From Lytechinus pictus (lineage: Eukaryota), in assembly GCF_037042905.1 (NCBI RefSeq), contig NC_087250.1, forward strand, positions 13,208,001 through 13,272,000: DNA of 64,000 nt, written 5' to 3'. Below, piece by piece: positions 61 through 62,099 of the stretch. Each line of letters begins with the position of its first letter. Positions within the stretch are counted from its first letter, which is position 1. The notes under the pieces are model-generated. The model searched no databases. It was not told the origin of the DNA and saw only the letters and a program-made list of their open reading frames with translations. The translations under genes and the position numbers were made by a program.

Positions 61-3000
61 AATTATTTTTCCCACCGCAGTTCTGGAAGCCAATATGAAT
101 ATTCATGACTTGCGTCTTCGGAATAAGAGTACGCATGCGCGGGGACTTGCAAACTTAATTGTCAAATCAGTGGGCGTCGTTAGTGTTCACGTTGCCACGA
201 ATGAACCTTCAATAGGCCTTATATTATCTTAGATATATATCTTATCAAACTGCCATTAATTACAAGAAAAATACTAGGCTAGGGCTAGCCTAGGCTAGGG
301 CTATCTTAGGCTAGCGCATTTACTTTATCTCAAATCTGGACATGCCTAATGCCTTATGCCGACTAATGCCATTGTTTACAGTTGACAGTTTCTCTATGTT
401 AGGAAGGCCAGCCAATATGTACTTCAAATGAAGCAATCAACATAGAATTCAATTACTACTATCACTCCTATCCTGTTGGAAAATATATTTCCTTATTCAT
501 TTTATAAAAGAACAAAATAAACAAGTACTTTCAAACTTGTGAGATATCATCATTATGACAAGTATAAATTCAAACTTATCTTGGCTATCAACCTTCCGAT
601 GATAAATATTTGTTCAATAAAATATGTATACTATACTAAACTAAATTAAACATATTGTCAACAATTACTACTAAGTTCTAATTCAATCACATACATATCT
701 TAATTTAGCAAAACATTAAACAATCACTCATTTACATCAAATACAATTGTCTGAAAAATCTCTGTCTGATAAGTTGGTCAGTAGGTCACAGCATACTTTA
801 GTGGTCTCGATGGGATTTAAAGGTCACAGGGCAATTCTCAGTAATGGTCATTTATGTCATTAATGTCATTTTACCTGTCACCTAGTCTGAATATTGTAAT
901 AAAACAGATGGATTGGGGTACATCTTGCCTTGTATTGAGGATTAGTTTTTATAAAGGTCTGTTCACACTTGTAAGATTTCAGACAATAGTGATGTCACCA
1001 AAGTAGTTTCTAAACACTCCACAACAATATTATATAAATCGATCAATTTGTGAGCGGTGGGCGTCCTCATCATAGTGAAATGTGCCTTTATTTTCATTTC
1101 AAATTCCGAAGTATATTTATGTCATAGGATTACGCACCAAATCTCCTATATGAGTTTCACTCCTAATTTGCTCTGATAATGTCTTAATGGTCATTTTCAA
1201 GTACATTCAAACCTGATTTGAATTCATGCTATACACAAAGCGGCGAAATACTAAAAGAAAATAATAAAAACCAAAATAAAATGGTATTTCTTGACACACA
1301 AGGCCTATGTGTAGTCCAGTATCATTCATCACTGGAAAATGCTTTGCTTTACATGTTAATGTTTACCAAGTAAACATCATCATGATTTTTGATTGAAATA
1401 TAAAACGTTCTTGCTTCATAATATCATCTACCTTGATTACATCACATCCAAATGTTGTTTGAGAAATAATGAAATATCACATGTTACGTTAACTAAGTTA
1501 ATCCTTATCTAGCTCAATATTCTTTGGAACTGTCAGTGTCAATGACTTTAGTCATAACGGTGGTTTAATTTTCATCATGGTCAATTTTAAATCATAATTA
1601 AGAATCTGGTTAGAGTCAGTGTTTGTCAAATATTTTGAATGTTGCTATTCCCAATGTATATAAAGAAAATGGTTTCACTTACCGATCAGAGATGAAGAAG
1701 ATGTCTTCAAAGAATGATTAAAATTTGGTATAATGAATAGCACAATTAAAGTAATGTCCAGTGTTATTATATATTCAGGGGAAGAGTCAAAGTAATTCAT
1801 TCTATAGTTCAGGATTTATGTTGTTGTAGTGGTGATCTGCGTCTTTGGCGATGGCGTCCGGTAATGGCGTCTTGTCATGCTTTCAGTTAATGTCATTTTC
1901 ATTGATGTCCTTGTCCCAATGTCCCTCCGTCTGTATCGTCCGTCTGTTCATCCGTCTTTGTCTTCCGTCTGTGTCTTTCTGTAGTGCGGTAATTGTAGTC
2001 ATCGATTTTTGTCATCCAATGTAGCTCAGGTTCTAACAGTGATTTGTGTCGGGTGCTAATAACTGAAATCTCAATTGTCTTTTGATTCTAATTAGAGCAA
2101 TTCTCAGCCTTTTCTCGAAGATCTCCATGATTCTAATATTTCTCAATTCTAAAGCCGGGTTCTCCACCATGTCGTGTAACAGGAAGATGAATGTAATATA
2201 ATTTAGAAGTATCAGATTGAGATTCGGAGTGAAGTTAAATTAATATTCGATGGACGTCTCTCTGGATGAGTGTTCGTCTAGTATTCTATCGTTGTATTCT
2301 ATATCTCTAATAATCATGAAGTCTTATTTATATCATTAGTTTTGGGGGTGTAACGATTTAAGGTGGGAGTGATCTAAACTTGATCTGATGGGTCTACAGG
2401 TAACTGTCTATCAAACTTTCTCTGGTATAATGGCTGTGGTGATTCTCTTTGCAAGTGGCTGGGGCTGGAAATGTGAGTCATACTTCTTAGAACTTTTGTT
2501 CCTTGAAGTTAGCTGACGTCACTGAGGGTTGGTATTTTTATAGTCAAGGTTTAGGAGTTAAATGGTATTGGGGGGTTTTGGAATTCTAAGATGACATTGG
2601 GGGAGTATGTAAACAAGTGAAGGTGAATGACTGAAAGGATAACAGGAAGTTAAACTACATACTACATAACACTAGTTCTGGATCTAAATAAATTTATCTT
2701 AGATCTAGTCTAGTCTCTAGACCTCGATATGGTCTGATCTACGCTGTATCAGCACGGAACGTATTCTAACGTCAGACACAAATAAACGTGAGCAGAACAC
2801 GCACGTAAACTGTCTATGTTTAACGCACGGCTCTGCATACTATTGCAATCGCAGAGTAAACTCTCGATCTTGATCCCCGTCTTGATCAACAAAATATAAT
2901 AGATCGATCTGCATTTTCTTTACCAATTATTAAGTTTTTAATTTTCCGTGCTCCAAATCGGCAATTGTGCACTAGATCTAGTTCTAGATACGGACTAGAC

Positions 3001-5421: not shown

Positions 5422-6099
5422 ATTCCCGGGTGGTCTCCCACCGGCCGCCGCGAGATCATCGACCGATCATTGAGCCGAGCCGCCGGCTACGAGCCGGTGA
5501 ACACTCTACAGCCTATGATCAAACGAATTCAATTTTTGACCTAAATCGTTCGACGTTGACCGCTTGATTATGTCGGCGCCAGGACGCCGACCACCCAGGC
5601 GCCGACCGGCGAGTAAAAAGGGAGCAGTTGCCGCAGGAATTTAAACTCTGCGCTAAATTTTGAGCGGCGCGACCGAGCGATGCCCCCAAAACCAGTGGTG
5701 CCCGGACGGTCGGCGCCTGGTGCCTGGGCGAAATTGACTAGAATTTCGCTGCACGGTCGCCGAGCAAGCTAATTTTTGGGGTTGTGACCTTAGCCTAACT
5801 CTCCGTTCGTAACTTGTCATTTGTGTCTCGGTAGATTTTGGCATTATCCTAAAATGAGAGAAAATTCGGCGCTGCTCCATGGAACTTAACGTTATGTGTT
5901 GATTTGTATGTTGCTTGTAGCACTGCACAATTGTTGGGTCACGTTACCAGATATTAGGCGATTTTTTTTATTATTATTATTTTAGCTCGACGTGACGTGA
6001 TTACGTGAGTAATCGTTGGAAGTCATGTAAAATTGAGTATATAGAAGGGGGGGTATGCTATAAGTAATACCGGTAATGATAATGGTAATGGTAATAACA

Positions 6100-15402: not shown

Positions 15403-16293
15403 CATTGAAGAACACTCGTTCCTTCGTCAAACCTCTACCAATTTTCGACAGTGAGCTCTTATCTGTTGACTTTGATTTGACGGCCGTGGTCAATGGGTGA
15501 TTTCAAGTTCAGTGTTGCCCTTTTGGTGTTGGTGTTAGGTCATTTCTTACACGAGTATAACACCAAACATAAAATGAAGATGGTCTTGAAAAGTCACCTA
15601 CTAGTTTTTGAGATGTCAATAAAGTGGTGATCTGGATCATATTTACAAACTCAGAATAGATTTTGGAGCTTGGGGAAGCAATCCAAATTCCAATATCAAC
15701 ACCAGTGCCTACACCGGACTTAAACTCACCCTATGAATCCTCAGCGGTCCAGAAAGCGCCTGAGAAGTGACTGCAAAAATACGTTATCATTCATTGATGC
15801 CGTTGGGCTGAGGGCAACGCATCTATACGCACCTGTCTGTAAATATCCTCCACTTCATGGGCAGTGTCCATGGTAATTCATATTGGCATTCAGTGATAAA
15901 GCAATCAGTTGGTAATATTTCATATAATTGTATTCTTAATGATAAACTGGCATTCGTATGAATTCATGTTTACAAAAGTTTTAAAATTTGTGAAATAGAA
16001 GACAATAAAGGTTTATTGGGATTGCAATGAATGAGTAACTTCCCAACCCTGGGGAACCAAGTGGCATTACGGTTTGTTGATCTTGACGCAGATTTACTGT
16101 GGAAGACATGCTCGAGTCTCATTCGCCTGATGTAGCCCACAGTGGTTAGTGAAACGTCGCGACAACAGAGAACTGTCAGCTTGAACTTTACAGTTTTCAC
16201 AAAATTTCCAGTAAAATATTTATAACTCATTATTTTAACATAAAGTTATTACGAATGAAAATACCCCTTTACAAATTAAAATATAACATTTAC

Positions 16294-53746: not shown

Positions 53747-56299
53747 GTAAGCAATAGCCCAAATATGATAGTGATAATAATGATGATAAAAAAAATAATA
53801 ATGATAGTGATACCAATTGTAGTTGTAGTGGTATAATAGCTAAAGCGTCAGGGAATAATCCATGTCGAACTCCTTTACCTCATCTCGTTAAAAGGTCCCG
53901 TTTCAGATCGAAATACCGATACTTTCACCCTGTGCTTTGCGCTCGTATGAAGTATAGTTAGATAAACCTGTTGCTCTTTAGTAGAATCACGCTTAAAATG
54001 TCCCGTTTTCAGGTCAGAATCTACCCCCCCCCCTCAGAAAAAAAAATGCTCGAGCTTGCGCTTGTATATTATTGGTTAGATATGCATCTTTTTAGTGAGT
54101 CTCTGCTAAGAGTACTAAAAATGTCAATTCTCATATCATTATAAAAACAATACCCCGCTCTTTACCCTTGCATTAAATAGATATGAATAGTTTTTTTACG
54201 ATTACAAGGTCTGAATATCATTGCGTATGAAAAATACTGCACATGCTTCTCGCTCGAATTTGTTTTGGCCTTGTCAGATACCTAATAGTGTTTGTGCAAA
54301 TAAAGCTAGTTGTACTTAAAAACGTATTTTAGCATTCAGCATTCCCCCAAAACAGATTTATTTTGGTGGCCCCCAACAAAATATCAAGGTCCCCAGCGCC
54401 CCCTGCTGTAAGAAATTCCTAACTAAACCACTGGTCGGAACATCTTTGGAGTCTTATCATTTTATATGACCGTCTAGAATTTCTCATCAATACTTTTGTC
54501 TAGAATAAACAATCAAAGTGGTGCAAGTTTATGACTTTTTTCTTTCTATTTTATATTTTATGCACATGTTGTAAAATCAAACTTGTGCTTTTTTTATTGT
54601 GTTGCAGAGCCCCTATGTAAATCAGTTACTAACTGTAAGGACTACCCTGTTAAAATTAAGCGTAAACAAAATTAAGAATTAATTTGAACAATTTGCAGCA
54701 AGCCGTTTTCAAGAAGAGTGTGTCCAATGTCGGCGTAGATGATTTATTAAATGCATTGGATGGGGTTTCTCTGTGGAATCATGTATGCTGTCCTTTCCCC
54801 TGCCCAGCATTATATGCTGTCATGAATATTCATTAGCTGGGCTGACAATGTAAACATCCCATTTTTTCTTGTTATGTTAATGCATGAAATCATAATTATT
54901 TCATGTTTCCTACATGTTTGTATAATATGTCTCCCTTATAATGAAATAGGTTGCAGCAATGTATCATTCAGTAGGCAGGTCCAGAAAAAGTAGCCTTTTT
55001 TATCCAAGTGATATTTATGACTATCGAGGGTTTTTGCATTGTTAATGAGCTCGGTGCGAAGGAATACACCCCCTTTTCCGGCCATTGCTGCTCTAAATAT
55101 CGACCAAATTTCAGGTTTTTGTTATCTTTATAAAGAATAAAATTCATTCTTTAAGTTCATGTGTCTGTATTTAAAAAAAAATAATAATAAAGGTGAATTT
55201 TTTATCTAAGACATGATACAAATTAATTTTTCCATGCAACAAAAGTTGTTGTTCTTACACTTTATTTATGTTTGAGACCAAATGATTTTTTTACATTATT
55301 ATAAAGCTAAAGATCTAAGCTTTAATATGATATAGGTTTTATAAGAAGAGGCCTTTTAGATGGGTATAGCAGCCAGATTTTCACAGGTCAAGTACATTTA
55401 GCAGATTGAAAACAGGAATTGGCCCACTCTCATTCCATTGCACTAGGGCCTGTCCAAGGTCGCATTCACCATGCGGTGATCTCTTCAAATACCCGCGACT
55501 GTTGTTCTGAGGCTTATCCAGCCAATCAGAACTGTGCATTTCTTGCTACTCAGAATTTTCAAAAATCTCGTCTGTATCTTAATGGGAAAAGCTGGCTGCT
55601 GACCCATCTAAAAGGTGCCAAATATCAAGAGTGGCATTGTGATAAAGTATAGAGTTTGAGCTTTCTGATGACATAAAAAGGATTTGTGCCCCCCCCCCCC
55701 TAAAAAAATACACGATTTGCAAGAGTGAGAAAATACCGTTTGAGGCATCCTTTCAGACATGAAATTTACTTATTAATATTTATTTTTATTCAAAAGAAGT
55801 TATCAATATAAAGGAGTAATATTAACTTTTTACTATGGTACAAAATTAATCAATTTAACTTCAGGAGAAAGTGGTTAAATTCCGTCTATGAGAAGAAAAA
55901 GGTCTCACAATTCACAAGATTTTGCAGGGATATGAATTCAGCCACGAAATGATTTTCACTAATTTCACTGATTATTCACTAATAATTTCTTGTTTGCCTA
56001 ATGAACAACCATAATTCATGCAATGGGTAACAAAACAACTAGTTTGGATATGACATCAGTTTGCTAATTGAATATTCATCAAGACATGGACAGAACTGAA
56101 TCACCGAAATTCAAATCTTTATAACTTTTGTTATTCCTTCCCGATCTCGATCAAAATTTCCAGTGTTTTGTCAGTTTGATTTTCTTTATCTGATCTATTC
56201 ATATCATTCCCGCTCTGGAGTACCCCCTTAATTGTGGAGGTTCGTGTAAAATATCAATGCAAACTTCTTATTTGTAAACTCGTTGATTTTTTTTAACAG

Positions 56300-56590
56300 C
56301 CCGTCTGTTTTACTACACGGAGTCCAGTAGATTGAGCTTAATCAATGCTGACGGGAGCGGGGATCAGACAATCAAGGTATTCTCTGACCACTCTGTGGGC
56401 TACACACCGATCAGCAAGTATGGGGGCAAGATGCTCTGGCTGGGCACGGATCCTGCCGATTTTATAGTAAACATATACGAGTACGATCTCAAGTTTTCTT
56501 CTGTCAGGCTCCTCAACAAGACGGTAACAATGAATGACGGCAGCCAGCGTACCATCGCGTATCCAGGCGCGTTAAAGATAATTTCGAATG
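56300..56590 (+). CDS. YWTD-HYR gene exon 5: propeller blades 5-6
   Basis: ttttaacag acceptor, GTAAGG donor, 291 bp phase 1-1; RLFYYTE..INADGSG..GGKMLWLG..YPGALKII. Confidence 0.9.
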
Positions 56591-56971
56591 GTAAGGTCAA
56601 TAGTTTGTTTGCTCAGAATACTGGTATACAGATGGGGGAGGGGGGTGGGCTTGGGGGTCATGGACCTACTCCCCCCCCCCCCCCATCCCGGAAAAAAAAT
56701 TATGACCAATATAAAAGAGGGTGAGAAAAAAGGATGAAAATGTGTGAAAAATCATTTTCTGAATATTATGCCCAAAAATATTACACATTTAGATATTTGT
56801 ATTCCAAAGGTTAATTTTTTTTGCTCTCTCGCTCCGCTCGCCCGCGCAGCTGCTTAGAAATTAAAAGACATGTCCCATACGCAATGTCTGGTCCCGTTCA
56901 AATGTTTGGAACATTACGCTGTTGGGGTTGGAGCTGGAGGCGGGTGTTTGGTTGCTGGAAATAACACTGCA

Positions 56972-57048: not shown

Positions 57049-59417
57049 CACCTGGTTTAAAGTTGTGGTATAACTATGAAGAGCCAATGGAGCACAAATC
57101 CCTAACAATACACATTCAGTTTATTAAATCATATGACATCCAAGATGTTCATAATTGTCTGGGAATGATAACTGAAGTATTTTTCTTCATTATGAAAGCG
57201 AAAGGAAACAAAATCTTAAACATACGAAATATACAATATACATAGGCGGATCCAGGGGGGCCCCCCTATTGGCGGAACAAAAAAAAGGAAAAAAGGGGGA
57301 AAGAAGAAAAAAAAGAAAAAGAAAAGAGAGGAGAAAAAAAAGAGGAAAGATAAGATGAGGAAGACGAGTGAAAAATAAGATGAGGGGAAGACTTGGAAAA
57401 AAAGTTTATGTCACTATATAAAATGTTCGCTCGCGCTTCGCGCTTGCATTGCATTTTACGTGATTTACATATCTTGCTCAATTTGGAGCTTAAAATATCA
57501 AGTTTTGAAGTCATTATACAAAACATATTTCAGCTCGGAAATCAAACTTTCATTATTTTGTTTGATTTACAAATCGATTTTTTAAAAGTGCTCTGTAAAA
57601 ATGTCATATTAACATTTTTTACTCGCGCTGTTTGATTGTCAGGTACCTATCTTTTTCGTGTATTCCATAAAGTTTTCAAAATATCCCCATTCAGGTCTGA
57701 TTGTCAAAAAGTATCAGCTAGCGCTGCACGCTCGCATTTTGATTGGTGAGTTATGTATAATTATCTCAATATAAATTCTTTAACAAATTACTTGAAATCC
57801 CCATTTCATGACAGTTTGTCAAAAATTTCGGCTCCGATTTGCGCTGGCATTAATTGTTCAAAATATATTTAAACTCATGCATCCTATTCATAATTTCAAA
57901 AATGCTTGCATAGTATTTACAGATTTCGCGTTCTCATTATGCTTATTAGATTAATAAATAAGATTTAATAATTAAATAGTCCCTTTGTTCAGAATGGAAT
58001 ATCGACACGTTTCACTCGCGCTTGTCCTTAGAATGTCCCGGTCCTATATTATGTCAAAACTCAAAGTGATCATAATGAAAAAGATCATGGGCCCAATTCA
58101 TAAACAGTTACAGCTATTGTAATTTCGCCATTATGGCAGCTACCATGGTAACATTGATTGTGATTGGCTGCTGAGCCCTGTTGCCATGGTAATTGACATA
58201 ATGGCAAAGTTACACAGTTGTAACTCTTTAAGAAACGGACCCCAACTCTTTATTAAGAGCATATTAATCAATAAATTAACCCTTTTTCATATCGGAATAT
58301 CAATATGTTAAGCTCGCGCTTCGCGCTCGCTTTATTGATTTTCATAACAAAAGATGTATTTAAAATGCTTCGATTCTAGGTCTAAATCTGAAAGACGTGT
58401 GCGCATGTTTATTCAGAAACGCAACTTGTTCTCTATTTATATAATTTTCCAGTTTAAGATCACAATACGAAAAAAAAAGTCTGCGCGTGCTTTGTGCTCG
58501 CCTTATTAATGTAAGAAGATCCCCTATTACTAATCATTTTCATGATTTACAAAACATGAAAAGAGTATCCCGTTTTTAGGTATAAATCTCGATTTTTTTT
58601 TCCGCTTTCGCTTCGCGCTCGCATATTCTTCAGTTAGCTATCCTGTTCACGATTACAAAAATTGATTAAAATTTTCCAATCTTTGTGTAGAAATGTCAAA
58701 ATTGTTCAGCTCGCGCTTTGGGCTCGAATTATCATTGTAAGGAAGATCCCCAATTACTCATCCATTACTTGATTTACACATGATTAGAGTGTCTCATTTT
58801 AAGGTCTAAATCTCGAAATTTCCGCTCGCGCTTCGCGCGGCAACAATTGTTTAAATAGATAGCTATCCCACTTAAGTTACAAAAAGTGCTTAGAATTTTC
58901 ATTCTTTAGATTGTTGGAATATGTAACGTATTCATTGCTAACTGCAAGCAGTCCTTAACAGGTTCCTTTTCGATCAGTTAAAAACGTAGGAATAAAAATT
59001 TTATGCTCGCGCTCGAACTATTATTGTAAGGAAAATCCCAATTACTCATCCTTTTCATGATTTACAAAACATGAATAGTGTCTCGTTTTCAGGTCTAAAT
59101 CTCGAAATTTTCCACTCGCGCTACGCGGTCGCATCAATTGTTTAAATACAGAGGTGTCCTGTTTAAGTTACAAAAAGTGGTTAGAATTTCCATTCTTTAG
59201 GTGGAAAATGTCAAAAATTTTCAGCTCTCGCTTCGCGCTCGAATTATTTGATTGTTGAAATATGCAACGTCTTCATGGCTAACTGTAAGCAGTCCTTAAC
59301 AGGTTCCTATTCGATCAGTTCAAAACGTGTATTAAAATTTCTGCTCGCGCGTCGCGTTCGTAGTAATTATTTAGTTGCATGTTCATCTTTTTCAGGATAA
59401 CAAACATTGCCCAGAAT

Positions 59418-59754
59418 AATCGCTAGAGGGTATTCATTTGTCTCGCAATCTACTATGGTCAACAAGGAAATTCGTGATCACTCTCGCAAAAAGTGTTCAC
59501 TGGCTTTCTAGGAAATTCGTGATCACTCTCGCAAAAAGTGTTCACTAGCTTACAAGTTCACGAGCTTTCGAGTGCCGCTGCAACTCTTTATCAAGTGACT
59601 TTTTTGCGAGAGTGATCACGAATTTCCTAGAAAGCCAGTGAACACTTTTTGCGAGAGTGATCACGAATTTCCTTGTTGACCATAGTAGATTGCGAGACAA
59701 ATGAATACCCTCTAGCGATTATTTCAATCCGCAATAATGAACCTATTTAGTATT
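59418..59754. mobile_element. Penelope-like pLTR insert with inverted duplication
   Basis: 12-bp direct repeat attgcccagaat at 59406-59417 and 59755-59766; perfect 123-bp inverted arms; hammerhead-type motif in the spacer. Confidence 0.75.
59554..59601 (-). ncRNA. Minimal type I hammerhead ribozyme motif (U3-A8 variant)
   Basis: Minus RNA: AAGUCAC UUGAUAA A GAGUUGC AGCG GCACUC GAAA GC UC GUGAACUU. Stem I UCAC/GUGA, stem II GAGU-GC/GC-ACUC, GAAA, palindromic AGCU stem III, CUC cleavage triplet. Confidence 0.7.
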
Positions 59755-60187
59755 ATTGCCCAGAATGTTCACATTTTAGGACAAATGCATAAAATATAAA
59801 AAAAAATTAGCTCGCGCTTAAGGACTTATAAGGATTATGTGCCATAATGTTTATGTTGGTTTATAAGAGTATAAGAAGTGACTATTAGGACTACCCCTTC
59901 AAAGGATCAAACAAAGATCATCTTCGACCGGCCGATCGGAAAAATATGGCTGAAAAAAATTCCGGGCCCCCCCCCCCCCCCCCCCTATTGGCGAAGGCTG
60001 GATCCGCCCCTGAATATAAACAGAATTTGTGAAATGTTGGCTCCCCATAATTTTAGCACAGAGTTAGACCGTGGTCTAAGTTAAACCTGACTTCAGAATA
60101 CGGGCCAGAGTGTTTACAAATAGTGACCAACGCTGTTACGTGCTGAAATTGACAATATAAGTATAATTTTCCAACCATGCAAACCTG

Positions 60188-60460: not shown

Positions 60461-61190
60461 CTGGACATTGTGTTTGTTCACATTGGTCGTCAGTGTATTC
60501 ACATTACTGATTACAATAAAATGTAATTCACAATGGTAACATGCTCAAATTTAAAATCGTGAAGAGGATATCATACGTTGCACACGGTGACACACACTGT
60601 TATACGCTGTACATTGCGTTTTTTTCCAAGAAGGACTTAGGGCTCAAGACGATTATGTACTTCATGAAAGGCCTAATAGCAAAGTCCGATTTTTTTTTTC
60701 ATTTAAATTTGAATATAAATTCTAATTCAGTTATATATTATTGATTTTCTCTTTCAAAGTTCAACTAAATGCGCCAGGGTGGATCGGAAAGGCTGTAAGG
60801 AAGACCTGTTAAAATTCCGAAGTCAACGGGGTTCTATTGCTTGTAGAATGTATTTTAAATGGATAGTATGTCTGCAAGGGTTTTATGAAGTCTTGCCACT
60901 TTGTATAGATGACATTTCCAGTCAAATAGGCGTATTATATGATGGACCTGTTTTAATCTAAAAAGAGTTAAAAATTACTTATGTTCTAAGACAAAGTTCA
61001 AATAAATATTCCACGGTTGATCGGAAAATACTGTAAGGTAGGCCTGTTAAAAAATCAGCTTAATCGGAAAGTCAACCACAGGTCTGCAATTAATCGTTTC
61101 AGGAATTCTTAACAGTTAACTCCCAGCCAACACGTCATGCAAGTTTGCGTATTAGGATGAACCAATTAATTATTTTTACTCTTTGAATAG

Positions 61191-61454
61191 TTTTGTATGA
61201 CCAGCCTGTTGCCATAGAAAGATGTCCTGAGAACATCGTAGCTGTGATTGACGACAACAACAGCGCATTGCCAGTTTACTGGGTTGAGCCTGTTTTGAAC
61301 AGCTTGTCCAGTTGTCCCAGAATGAGCTTCCTGGGACCAGGAAGTAATGGCGGGGATTACCCTATTGGCGTAACTGAGGTGTCCTACCAAGCCATAGATG
61401 CTGCAGGAAACACTGATAGATGCTCATTTACAGTGACGGTTCGAAGGGCCCATG
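61191..61454 (+). CDS. YWTD-HYR gene exon 6: HYR (hyalin repeat) domain
   Basis: ttgaatag acceptor, GTAAGT donor, 264 bp phase 1-1; CPENI..VYWVEP..GGDYPIGVTEVSYQAIDAAGNTDRCSFTVTV. Confidence 0.93.
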
Positions 61455-62099
61455 GTAAGTTTCACTTCCCTTATTCTCATCAATTTCGTTCATGTTGGTG
61501 TTACCACAATAACCTTACATTGTTATTAGTTGAAGTAGTCTTTTAAAAATCATGTAGTAATAGAAATGCACACCCGAAGAAACAGAGTTCTGACAACACT
61601 CCAAGTGTTTTCACTTTAAGTCGTATTGTGGCCTTAGAAGTAGATGTATATTCGGAAGTGCCTGGCTGCTGTAGTTGTTAGCAGCAACATGATTATCATC
61701 ATCTGTGATGATACAGAAATCTTCACACTTCACGTTAATGTACGAAAATGTATAGTTCAATGGGAAATGTTAAGTTGTGGGTGCGAAGGTGAGATTTTTT
61801 ACTTGAAAATATAACATTCTGAGCAGACTTAGGATCATGAATATTTTGCGTACATTCGTGAAATTTCATCTGTGTTGGTTGATAATTAGTAAAAATTGAC
61901 CTTTTGCTCACACCACATATGGAAAAATCTGAAAAATTACCTCGAAATTATTGGCTGCTAAATGCGGCCTTCTTTAGCGATGAGTGACCTAGTGACGTAG
62001 CGATCGTAATCTGGTCGTAGACACTCGGAAGCTTGTATCCCCTCCGTCCCTATTGAGACACATTGATATATACATTGATGATAAAGTTTTTACCGACAT

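Follow-up and report, generated by a model that had tools for sequence, protein, structure and literature searches.

A 337-bp insert at 59418-59754 of a 64,000-nt stretch of the Lytechinus pictus genome (NCBI RefSeq assembly GCF_037042905.1, contig NC_087250.1, positions 13,208,001 to 13,272,000 of the forward strand; hereafter the window, in whose coordinates positions are given unless a locus is named) carries a predicted minimal hammerhead ribozyme in the loop of a perfect foldback. Judged by its sequence, the insert consists of two head-to-head copies, both 5'-truncated, of the end region of an autonomous Penelope-like element (PLE), and there is no separate small element at the locus. We consider it very probable that the structure arose, dead on arrival, in a single retrotransposition event of a young PLE family of ~500 copies.

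A repeat search places the insert between two copies of a 12-bp direct repeat, ATTGCCCAGAAT, and resolves it into two arms of 123 nt that are 100% complementary and lie 63 nt apart, exactly as the initial annotation had described them (Table 1). We mapped both halves onto a long copy of the element, taking the G of GTCAC as reference position 0. The left copy, read from 59599 to 59415 in the minus sense, corresponds to reference positions 0..184 at 100% identity (1498-1682 in the coordinates of locus L001); it carries the hammerhead and 5' untranslated region (5'UTR), ends at the upstream of two reverse-transcription start sites, and has no tail. The right copy (59601-59754) is plus-sense, corresponds to reference positions 62..215, also at 100% identity, and is tailed. 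An ATG at 59737-59739 within the tail is followed by five further codons, and the element's open reading frame (ORF) contributes its first six codons as the last 18 nt of the insert (59737-59754), so that part of the insert is coding in origin. The hammerhead sits in the loop only because the left copy exceeds its partner by 62 nt. The boundary between the left target-site duplication and its arm is ambiguous by 3 nt, because the final 3 nt of that repeat are shared with the arm.

The 45-bp-period duplication previously reported in each arm was recovered as two tandem units with a mirror on the opposite side, but the second unit extends into the spacer rather than remaining within the arm. These units belong to the PLE 5'UTR itself: they are also found in the long copy L031, and some copies (L017, L018, L021) have a single unit. 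The insert is without the TATAAATA box that stands 31 nt upstream of GTCAC in long copies. As had been predicted for the pre-mRNA, plus-strand RNA of the insert folds as one long hairpin, with a minimum free energy of -250.4 kcal/mol compared with -78.2 +/- 5.0 for 100 shuffled sequences.

Table 1. Features of the foldback insert and of the neighbouring host exons (window coordinates).
Feature	Position	Strand	Basis or remark
Left target-site duplication copy (12 bp), ATTGCCCAGAAT	59406..59417	.	repeat search
Left arm: minus-sense PLE 5'UTR segment (hammerhead-to-ORF interval)	59415..59537	-	mapping onto long element
Two 45-nt tandem units, 93% identical (59465-59509, 59510-59554)	59465..59554	-	mirror at 59601-59673
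Spacer: 5' 62 nt of left copy, containing the minimal hammerhead and extending to GTCAC	59538..59599	-	mapping
Minimal type I hammerhead motif (predicted)	59558..59598	-	sequence; covariation; model R1
Filler nucleotide, single extra T at the inverted-copy junction	59600..59600	.	in L001, left copy ends 1682, right starts 1684
Right arm: plus-sense 5'-truncated copy of the same PLE 5'UTR segment	59601..59723	+	reference 62..184, 100%
31-nt tail, right side only	59724..59754	+	runs on into the PLE ORF in long copies
Right target-site duplication copy, 12 bp	59755..59766	.	repeat search
Upstream host exon, uromodulin-like P0121, residues about 10-117	56296..56631	+	tblastn; 100% identity over 85% of query
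Downstream host exon, P0121 residues 108-195, HYR domain	61190..61453	+	HYR E 2.9e-14; 100% identity

A search of the 812-Mb assembly, in which the window lies on contig C6, identified the source of these pieces. It returned at least 89 scored matches to the insert among 780 candidates, and 22 other places match query positions 1-182/185 at 100%, in agreement with the earlier view that the insertion is recent. At these 22 places the pieces stand in one order: the reverse complement of the spacer, one arm, and the 31-nt tail. Because this order is fixed, the three pieces together form a 216-nt block at the end of a longer entity, two long forms of which are informative. Locus L031 consists of two perfectly inverted 2430-nt copies, 16 nt apart, with an outward-reading open frame of 695 codons in each half. 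In locus L048, a tandem array, the hammerhead/5'UTR block is found at 2215, 5480 and 8347; since these blocks surround ORFs in direct orientation, the array has the partial tandem copies, or pseudo-long terminal repeats (pLTRs), expected of a PLE. Its uninterrupted 830-codon frame starts within the tail, the first Met being tail nucleotides 14-16.

The coding capacity of the long copies, as opposed to the window insert, includes a reverse transcriptase (RT), with RVT_1 matches at E 6e-8 (L031:3735-5819) and 7.5e-8 (an 822-aa product of L048). The family's own ORF gave no direct Pfam match to GIY-YIG even at E<=10, and a PDB sequence search with the ORF found nothing. Its C-terminal block, GVVYNIPCQGCDGSYIGETARPIVERISEH, aligns column for column with P0076, P0093 and P0097, which are themselves PF01541 (GIY-YIG) matches at ~1e-5; PF01541 was found in 3 of the 4 homologues scanned. 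Invariant in this GIY-YIG/CCHH alignment are Y690, C694, C697, Y701, G703, E704, T705, R712 and H716, and because the block aligns to PF01541-matching proteins we identify it as a GIY-YIG endonuclease (EN) with Cys/His insertion. A search with the ORF found 1666 homologues at E<=1e-10; of those that are named, the closest come from Lytechinus pictus (98%, partial), Strongylocentrotus, L. variegatus, Diadema, corals, fishes and Xenopus. Taken together, the RT, the C-terminal GIY-YIG, the tandem units, the inverted truncated copies and the tail define a canonical PLE, and the connection to a Penelope ORF that the initial annotation anticipated is present in the genome.

Two further observations concern the long copies and their relatives. 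One unit of the L048 array contains ~390 extra bases relative to L031 (L048:4366-4758), its frame is shortened to 664 codons, and the spacing between blocks is therefore 3265 nt there versus 2867 nt in the unit next to it. The genome contains at least seven PLE families (L049-L075), several of them with uninterrupted frames of 800-900 codons and with tandem arrays, such as the five units at 2826-nt spacing on C10.

We infer the following course of events for the window insert. The GIY-YIG endonuclease would nick both strands of the AT-rich intronic target with a 12-bp stagger, giving rise to the 12-bp duplication, and both 3' ends would prime reverse transcription of element RNA. The first cDNA would begin at the upstream of two adjacent internal start sites and run, tail-less, for 185 nt to GTCAC, whereas the second would begin 31 nt further downstream, 18 nt into the ORF, and so be tailed, with 154 nt copied at the time of joining. 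The two cDNAs would grow toward each other until a template jump joined their ends, leaving the extra T, and the product would be a pair of inverted end-fragments that overlap by 123 bp (the arms), with the 62 nt private to the longer copy as the loop. A PLE protein from an anole is active in vitro on both strands, nicking and extending each, and it uses two adjacent internal RT start sites, the interval between them being the 'tail' (PMC11167929), and an inverted 5'-truncated copy with a 30-40-bp tail at one end is typical of PLEs (PMC8557442, in excerpt).

The same plan recurs throughout the family. Head-to-head pairs were found at 23 of the 24 loci mapped (L029, the exception, could not be assigned a layout), and each of the 24 composite insertions, the 23 pairs plus the L048 array, has exactly one 31-nt tail. 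At 21 of 23 loci the insertion is flanked by direct repeats that measure 12 nt or more (mostly 12-14), differ from locus to locus and lie in AT-rich sequence. Among 18 short foldbacks analysed there are 18 different junctions; because junctions and flanks all differ, these foldbacks are independent events and not copies of one foldback. The 44-nt hammerhead motif occurs in 502 copies at <=2 mismatches (a control pattern gave 0), so that other copies of the motif, like those of the insert, exist in number as the initial annotation supposed. Where neighbouring motifs lie within 6 kb of each other among the first 100 listed sites, a hand count gives 15 pairs in the (-,+) arrangement, 0 in (+,-) and 2 direct, which is an indication, from a less biased sample than the foldbacks, of the head-to-head plan.

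Short copies also cluster in where they end. In 8 of the 18 short foldbacks one copy stops at reference position 0 or +1, that is, at GTCAC, and while 502 motif copies were counted, 417 retain the 13 nt upstream. An end hot spot at GTCAC together with a TATA box at -31 suggests run-off at the 5' end of the RNA, and on these footprints GTCAC is the likely RNA 5' end. The stricter proposition that GTCAC is the fixed 5' end of all short copies was ruled out by remapping: it is a hot spot, not a rule. RNA-seq reads (here and below from one run) cover the PLE 5'UTR, so family transcripts exist, many of them including the region upstream of GTCAC. Over 59411-59758 the first mates fall about equally on both strands, in a library not known to be stranded.

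A similar foldback could also be produced if a single cDNA folded back and self-primed its second strand, with only one of the target strands priming reverse transcription. Self-priming at microhomologies would yield overlaps of the kind seen at the junctions of L002, L007, L008, L010, L011, L012, L025 and L030, where they measure 1-5 nt. However, it predicts the same terminus at both ends of the product, contrary to the single tail of every composite insertion. Moreover, the tail-less copy in the window has reference positions 0-61, which are absent from the tailed copy, and the reverse is seen in L012, L025, L026 and L030. Because each copy can hold sequence its partner lacks, neither was simply copied from the other, and we regard a snap-back origin as unlikely.

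The initial annotation instead took the insert for a very small non-coding, retrozyme-like element in its own right, copied as a foldback unit; a MITE-like (miniature inverted-repeat transposable element) foldback with terminal inverted repeats would be a variant of the same idea. The insert is indeed short, effectively non-coding and flanked by duplications, it has many similar copies, and animal retrozymes are reported as derived from PLE pLTRs (bioRxiv 10.64898/2026.07.22.740005, in excerpt). Nevertheless, the 18 short foldbacks all differ in junction coordinates and flanks and none copies another; the window holds a single hammerhead whose surrounding repeats are inverted, with no tandem direct hammerhead repeat; 31 nt lie outside the right arm, and the inverted repeats are consequently not terminal; and in sequence the insert matches the internal 5'UTR of an autonomous element at 100% identity. 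A self-standing element is therefore very improbable, and this part of the earlier interpretation is replaced by a double end-fragment of the autonomous PLE.

Repeats that come out as perfect palindromes are a familiar assembler error, assemblies reportedly have difficulty with the inverted structures of PLEs (PMC8557442, in excerpt), and the short-read contigs at this locus did not visibly bridge the junction, all of which would fit a palindromic mis-join of repeat reads. Against such an artefact, an exact 12-bp duplication of unique flanking sequence encloses the insert, 21 of 23 other loci on many contigs show the same plan, each with a duplication of its own, and head-to-head outnumbers tail-to-tail by 15 to 0, so that we give a mis-join hardly any credence. 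That the hairpin is an RNA gene, such as a microRNA precursor, rather than transposon debris is scarcely tenable either: the cmscan match to MIR473 at 59516-59665(-) (33.3 bits, E 9.9e-5) falls under the gathering score of 52, its alignment jumps 77 nt and mirrors only the inverted repeat, and the sequence is PLE 5'UTR. MIR473 is a plant family. Other weak Rfam matches (snoRNA etc.) were below threshold and were taken as an effect of the hairpin or as chance.

Several observations weigh against a single two-ended retrotransposition event as we have described it. The loci were found with a foldback query or chosen as pairs, which biases the sample toward foldbacks, and 10 of the 18 short foldbacks end elsewhere than GTCAC, in a range from -31 to +32. 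RNA-seq reads continue upstream of GTCAC, 106 of them past 59599 into sequence resembling the TATA region. The start sites that the anole enzyme uses in vitro do not differ between the two strands (PMC11167929), for which reason the anole work leaves the strict one-tail rule unexplained. Among the contigs listed from three DNA runs, none bridges 59599/59601, and none of the 15 shown from these contig sets contains an empty-site joint; their depth came from the repeat family only. Even so, we still find dead-on-arrival retrotransposition of the PLE by far the most probable origin of the insert.

The hammerhead motif of the left copy can be read directly from the minus strand, where 59598-59558 is UCAC / UUGAUAA / A / GAGU-u-GC-agcg-GC-ACUC / GAA / AGCU / C17 (59562) / GUGA, the part between the extra A and GAA being GAGUuGCagcgGCACUC. 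In the predicted fold, helix I pairs 59598-59595 with 59561-59558, helix II spans 59586-59570, and the core UUGAUAA (59594-59588) is followed by the extra A (59587); GAA (59569-59567) then precedes the palindrome AGCU (59566-59563), with cleavage predicted between C17 and 59561. All elements of a catalytic core are found at 59594-59562(-), namely a covariant U3/A8, G12-A-A, A15.1-U16.1 and H17. The motif has 1 occurrence in the 64-kb window versus 0 expected by chance. The initial annotation's reading of a minus-strand type I hammerhead with UUGAUAA core, GAAA and palindromic AGCU thus agrees with the published minimal hammerhead ribozymes (min-HHRs) of PLEs (PMC4209133).

Sister families supply the comparative evidence for this fold. 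A relaxed motif scan, which demanded GAAA, a helix II of no fewer than 3 bp and either C3/G8 or U3/A8 in the core, gave 38 matches on 27 loci compared with 3.2 in shuffled sequence, and six further PLE families, whose proteins are 32-62% identical, carry the motif in sense orientation beside their ORFs. In an alignment of 11 sequences from 7 families (the family G row being shifted by a 1-nt insertion and scored unpaired there), 91.6% of cells are in standard pairs versus 63.1% after shuffling, with 0 of 500 shuffles reaching the observed value, and sliding the partners lowers the fraction to 30-53%. Changes on both sides are present in 10 of 13 hammerhead pairs. In 7 of the 11 sequences the core pair is C-G and in the other 4 it is U-A, without a mismatch; this pair was demanded by the scan. 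G10.1-C11.1 is kept in 10 of 11, the remaining one being G-U, and the outer 4 pairs of helix II are 100% paired, 3 of them with both-side changes. In helix I all 4 pairs show both-side changes and 81.8% of cells are paired. The helix III tetranucleotide is palindromic, AGCU here and ACGU or AAUU in sister families, with AUGU/AGUU variants; its 15.2-16.2 pair is C-G in 5, G-C in 2, A-U in 1, a wobble in 2 and other in 1. The scan made no demand on helix I, on the inner pairs of helix II, on the palindrome or on the extra nucleotide that follows A9. Finally, a covariance model built from 12 sequences of other families only (R1) has 59552-59602(-) as its top match in the window, at 33.5 bits (E about 1e-7, on a rough calibration). 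The predicted hammerhead is supported by the covariation among sister families and by this independent model.

The reading of the motif as a ribozyme also faces contrary evidence. While R1 recovers the site, an Rfam cmscan of the locus and of the long element detects no hammerhead at E<=10. This silence carries little weight, because in a control Rfam also misses the CUGANGA motifs of the sister-family loci L051, L060, L066 and L072 at E<=1 and its models are evidently insensitive to motifs with a canonical core as well. The 11 rows of the alignment represent only 7 families, with family A entered twice, and the core and outer helix II pairs are partly ascertained, because the scan demanded them. 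The minimum-energy fold of the monomer is not the hammerhead fold and barely beats shuffled sequence (z -1.68), as would be expected of a dimer-dependent motif: helix III is reduced to the palindrome AGCU, and two copies must therefore pair for activity. RNA-seq shows no pile-up of ends at the predicted cleavage site or at GTCAC, a signal that a weak, dimer-dependent ribozyme could escape leaving, and the anole PLE study likewise reports no pile-up of ends at the cleavage site (PMC11167929). Activity of such motifs in vitro is described as low, dimer-dependent and, in anole, protein-assisted (PMC4209133; PMC11167929; PMC6765202, the descriptions taken in part from excerpts). In the more-than-unit-length transcripts of the PLE itself, the motif is thought to process RNA weakly with the help of protein.

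Some other hammerhead-like sequences came to light. A perfect CUGAUGA box lies upstream of the hammerhead on the minus strand of L031 (6004-6016) and also in L048, and has a weak match to the C/D snoRNA Afu_199 (E 0.19). It was considered as a second, antisense ribozyme (L031 ~6004-6016) and rejected by eye, no GAAA following an in-register helix II; the box is probably there by chance. In the window, 16119-16168 (+) holds a degenerate PLE-type hammerhead-like motif, UCGC-CUGAUGU...GAAACGUC-GCGA, with A9 changed to U (R1 20.8 bits, E about 9e-4), which is probably an ancient relic of a different PLE family. A decayed motif at 61935-61985 (-), a short way downstream of the HYR exon, resembles that of family H, with a CUAAAGA core and AAUU palindrome (R1 17.9 bits, E about 7e-3).

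Because plus-strand exons of the uromodulin-like gene P0121 lie on both sides, the insert is intronic and its hammerhead is antisense to the host, as stated in the initial annotation; its assignment to intron 5, by contrast, is not borne out in the model of P0121, which alone among the annotated proteins matches here. The unique flanks of the insert have zero RNA-seq depth. With no TATA promoter, no second copy within 64 kb and an orientation antisense to the host, a local ribozyme would be expected to be silent, and it is probably inert at this locus. The only plausible local effect is that the intron of the host pre-mRNA might fold into a 123-bp perfect double-stranded RNA (dsRNA) stem. In the flanks, a GC-rich string (gctc(t)cgc(t)tcgcgctcg...) at 59208-59265, with similar sequence near 59330-59350 and 59810, is another high-copy repeat, because its DNA-contig word depth equals that of the PLE; a run of ~17 C lies at 59966-59986, 200 nt downstream of the insert.

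For annotation, these results mean that the hairpin should be masked as PLE debris; neither a ribozyme gene nor a microRNA nor a new mobile element should be entered for it. Being young and near-identical, the family offers unusually clean footprints: ~500 hammerhead copies, duplications of ~12 bp, one tail each, and pairs that are head to head and never tail to tail. They agree with a mechanism that uses both strands and two start sites, for which the only demonstration to date is in vitro with a lizard element, and they add to the in vitro work the constraint that each event would use one start site of each kind. The family also contributes natural covariation between C3-G8 and U3-A8 among sister families within one genome, and its perfect 123-bp stem within an intron of the host gene would be a source of dsRNA that can be tested for.

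Inverted duplication of the 5' region of a transposon can yield hairpin RNA, as in Mu killer of maize. One may speculate that two-ended integration routinely builds 5'UTR hairpins, and that intronic copies would supply dsRNA for siRNA- or piRNA-mediated silencing of the ~500-copy family, a brake of the 'Mu killer' type, the one-tail rule being an in vivo read-out of an asymmetric dimeric integration complex. We offer this as a long shot with some slight chance of being correct.

In its general plan the family resembles the insertion units of canonical endonuclease-positive PLEs (Craig et al. 2021, PMC8557442, in excerpt; Frangieh et al. 2024, PMC11167929), with which it shares an ORF for RT and C-terminal GIY-YIG and the tandem array. 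Also shared, as far as the excerpted source extends, are head-to-head inverted truncated copies, a one-sided tail (31 nt here) at the ORF start, AT-rich targets and a pLTR hammerhead. The window locus differs from such units in retaining only 185 + 154 nt of the element. The tail here reaches from 13 nt before the ATG to 18 nt into the ORF, whereas the anole start sites are 111-118 nt into the ORF, and the one-tail rule is strict here (24/24 composite insertions), in contrast to the absence of a strand difference in vitro for anole.

The motif shares with metazoan PLE min-HHRs (Cervera and de la Pena 2014, PMC4209133) a type I topology, a short helix I (4 bp), a 6-bp helix II with a bulge, an extra nucleotide between A9 and G10.1, the G10.1-C11.1 pair, palindromic 15.2-16.2, the lack of a helix III loop, and the palindromic A-N-N'-U before H17. 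Its U3-A8 core variant is also that of Cercyon of Schistosoma mansoni, where the variant was first seen (PMC4209133). What sets it apart from the published examples is the echinoderm host and the position of a single orphan copy antisense in a host intron; cleavage of dimers has been reported for PLE min-HHRs (Lunse et al. 2017, as cited in PMC6765202, in excerpt), and self-cleavage is only predicted here. Animal non-LTR retrozymes, too, are small, non-coding, PLE-related and hammerhead-bearing, in the available portions of the sources (PMC7229834; bioRxiv 10.64898/2026.07.22.740005), which describe tandem type I hammerhead repeats giving circular RNAs; by comparison the insert has one hammerhead, no tandem direct repeat, an inverted duplication and a locus-unique junction.

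In the open-access literature we found no paper linking these PLE and hammerhead features to sea urchin, and we do not claim that the echinoderm family is undescribed. Each structural feature has already been published for PLEs, whether the hammerhead in the pLTR, the U3-A8 variant, the truncated partner in inverted orientation, the tail on one side or the AT-rich targets. A parallel outside PLEs is the twin priming of LINE-1, in which both nicked target strands prime cDNA and the 5' part is inverted. There the inverted piece derives from another stretch of the RNA and no foldback results, whereas in the window insert both pieces cover the same 123 nt.

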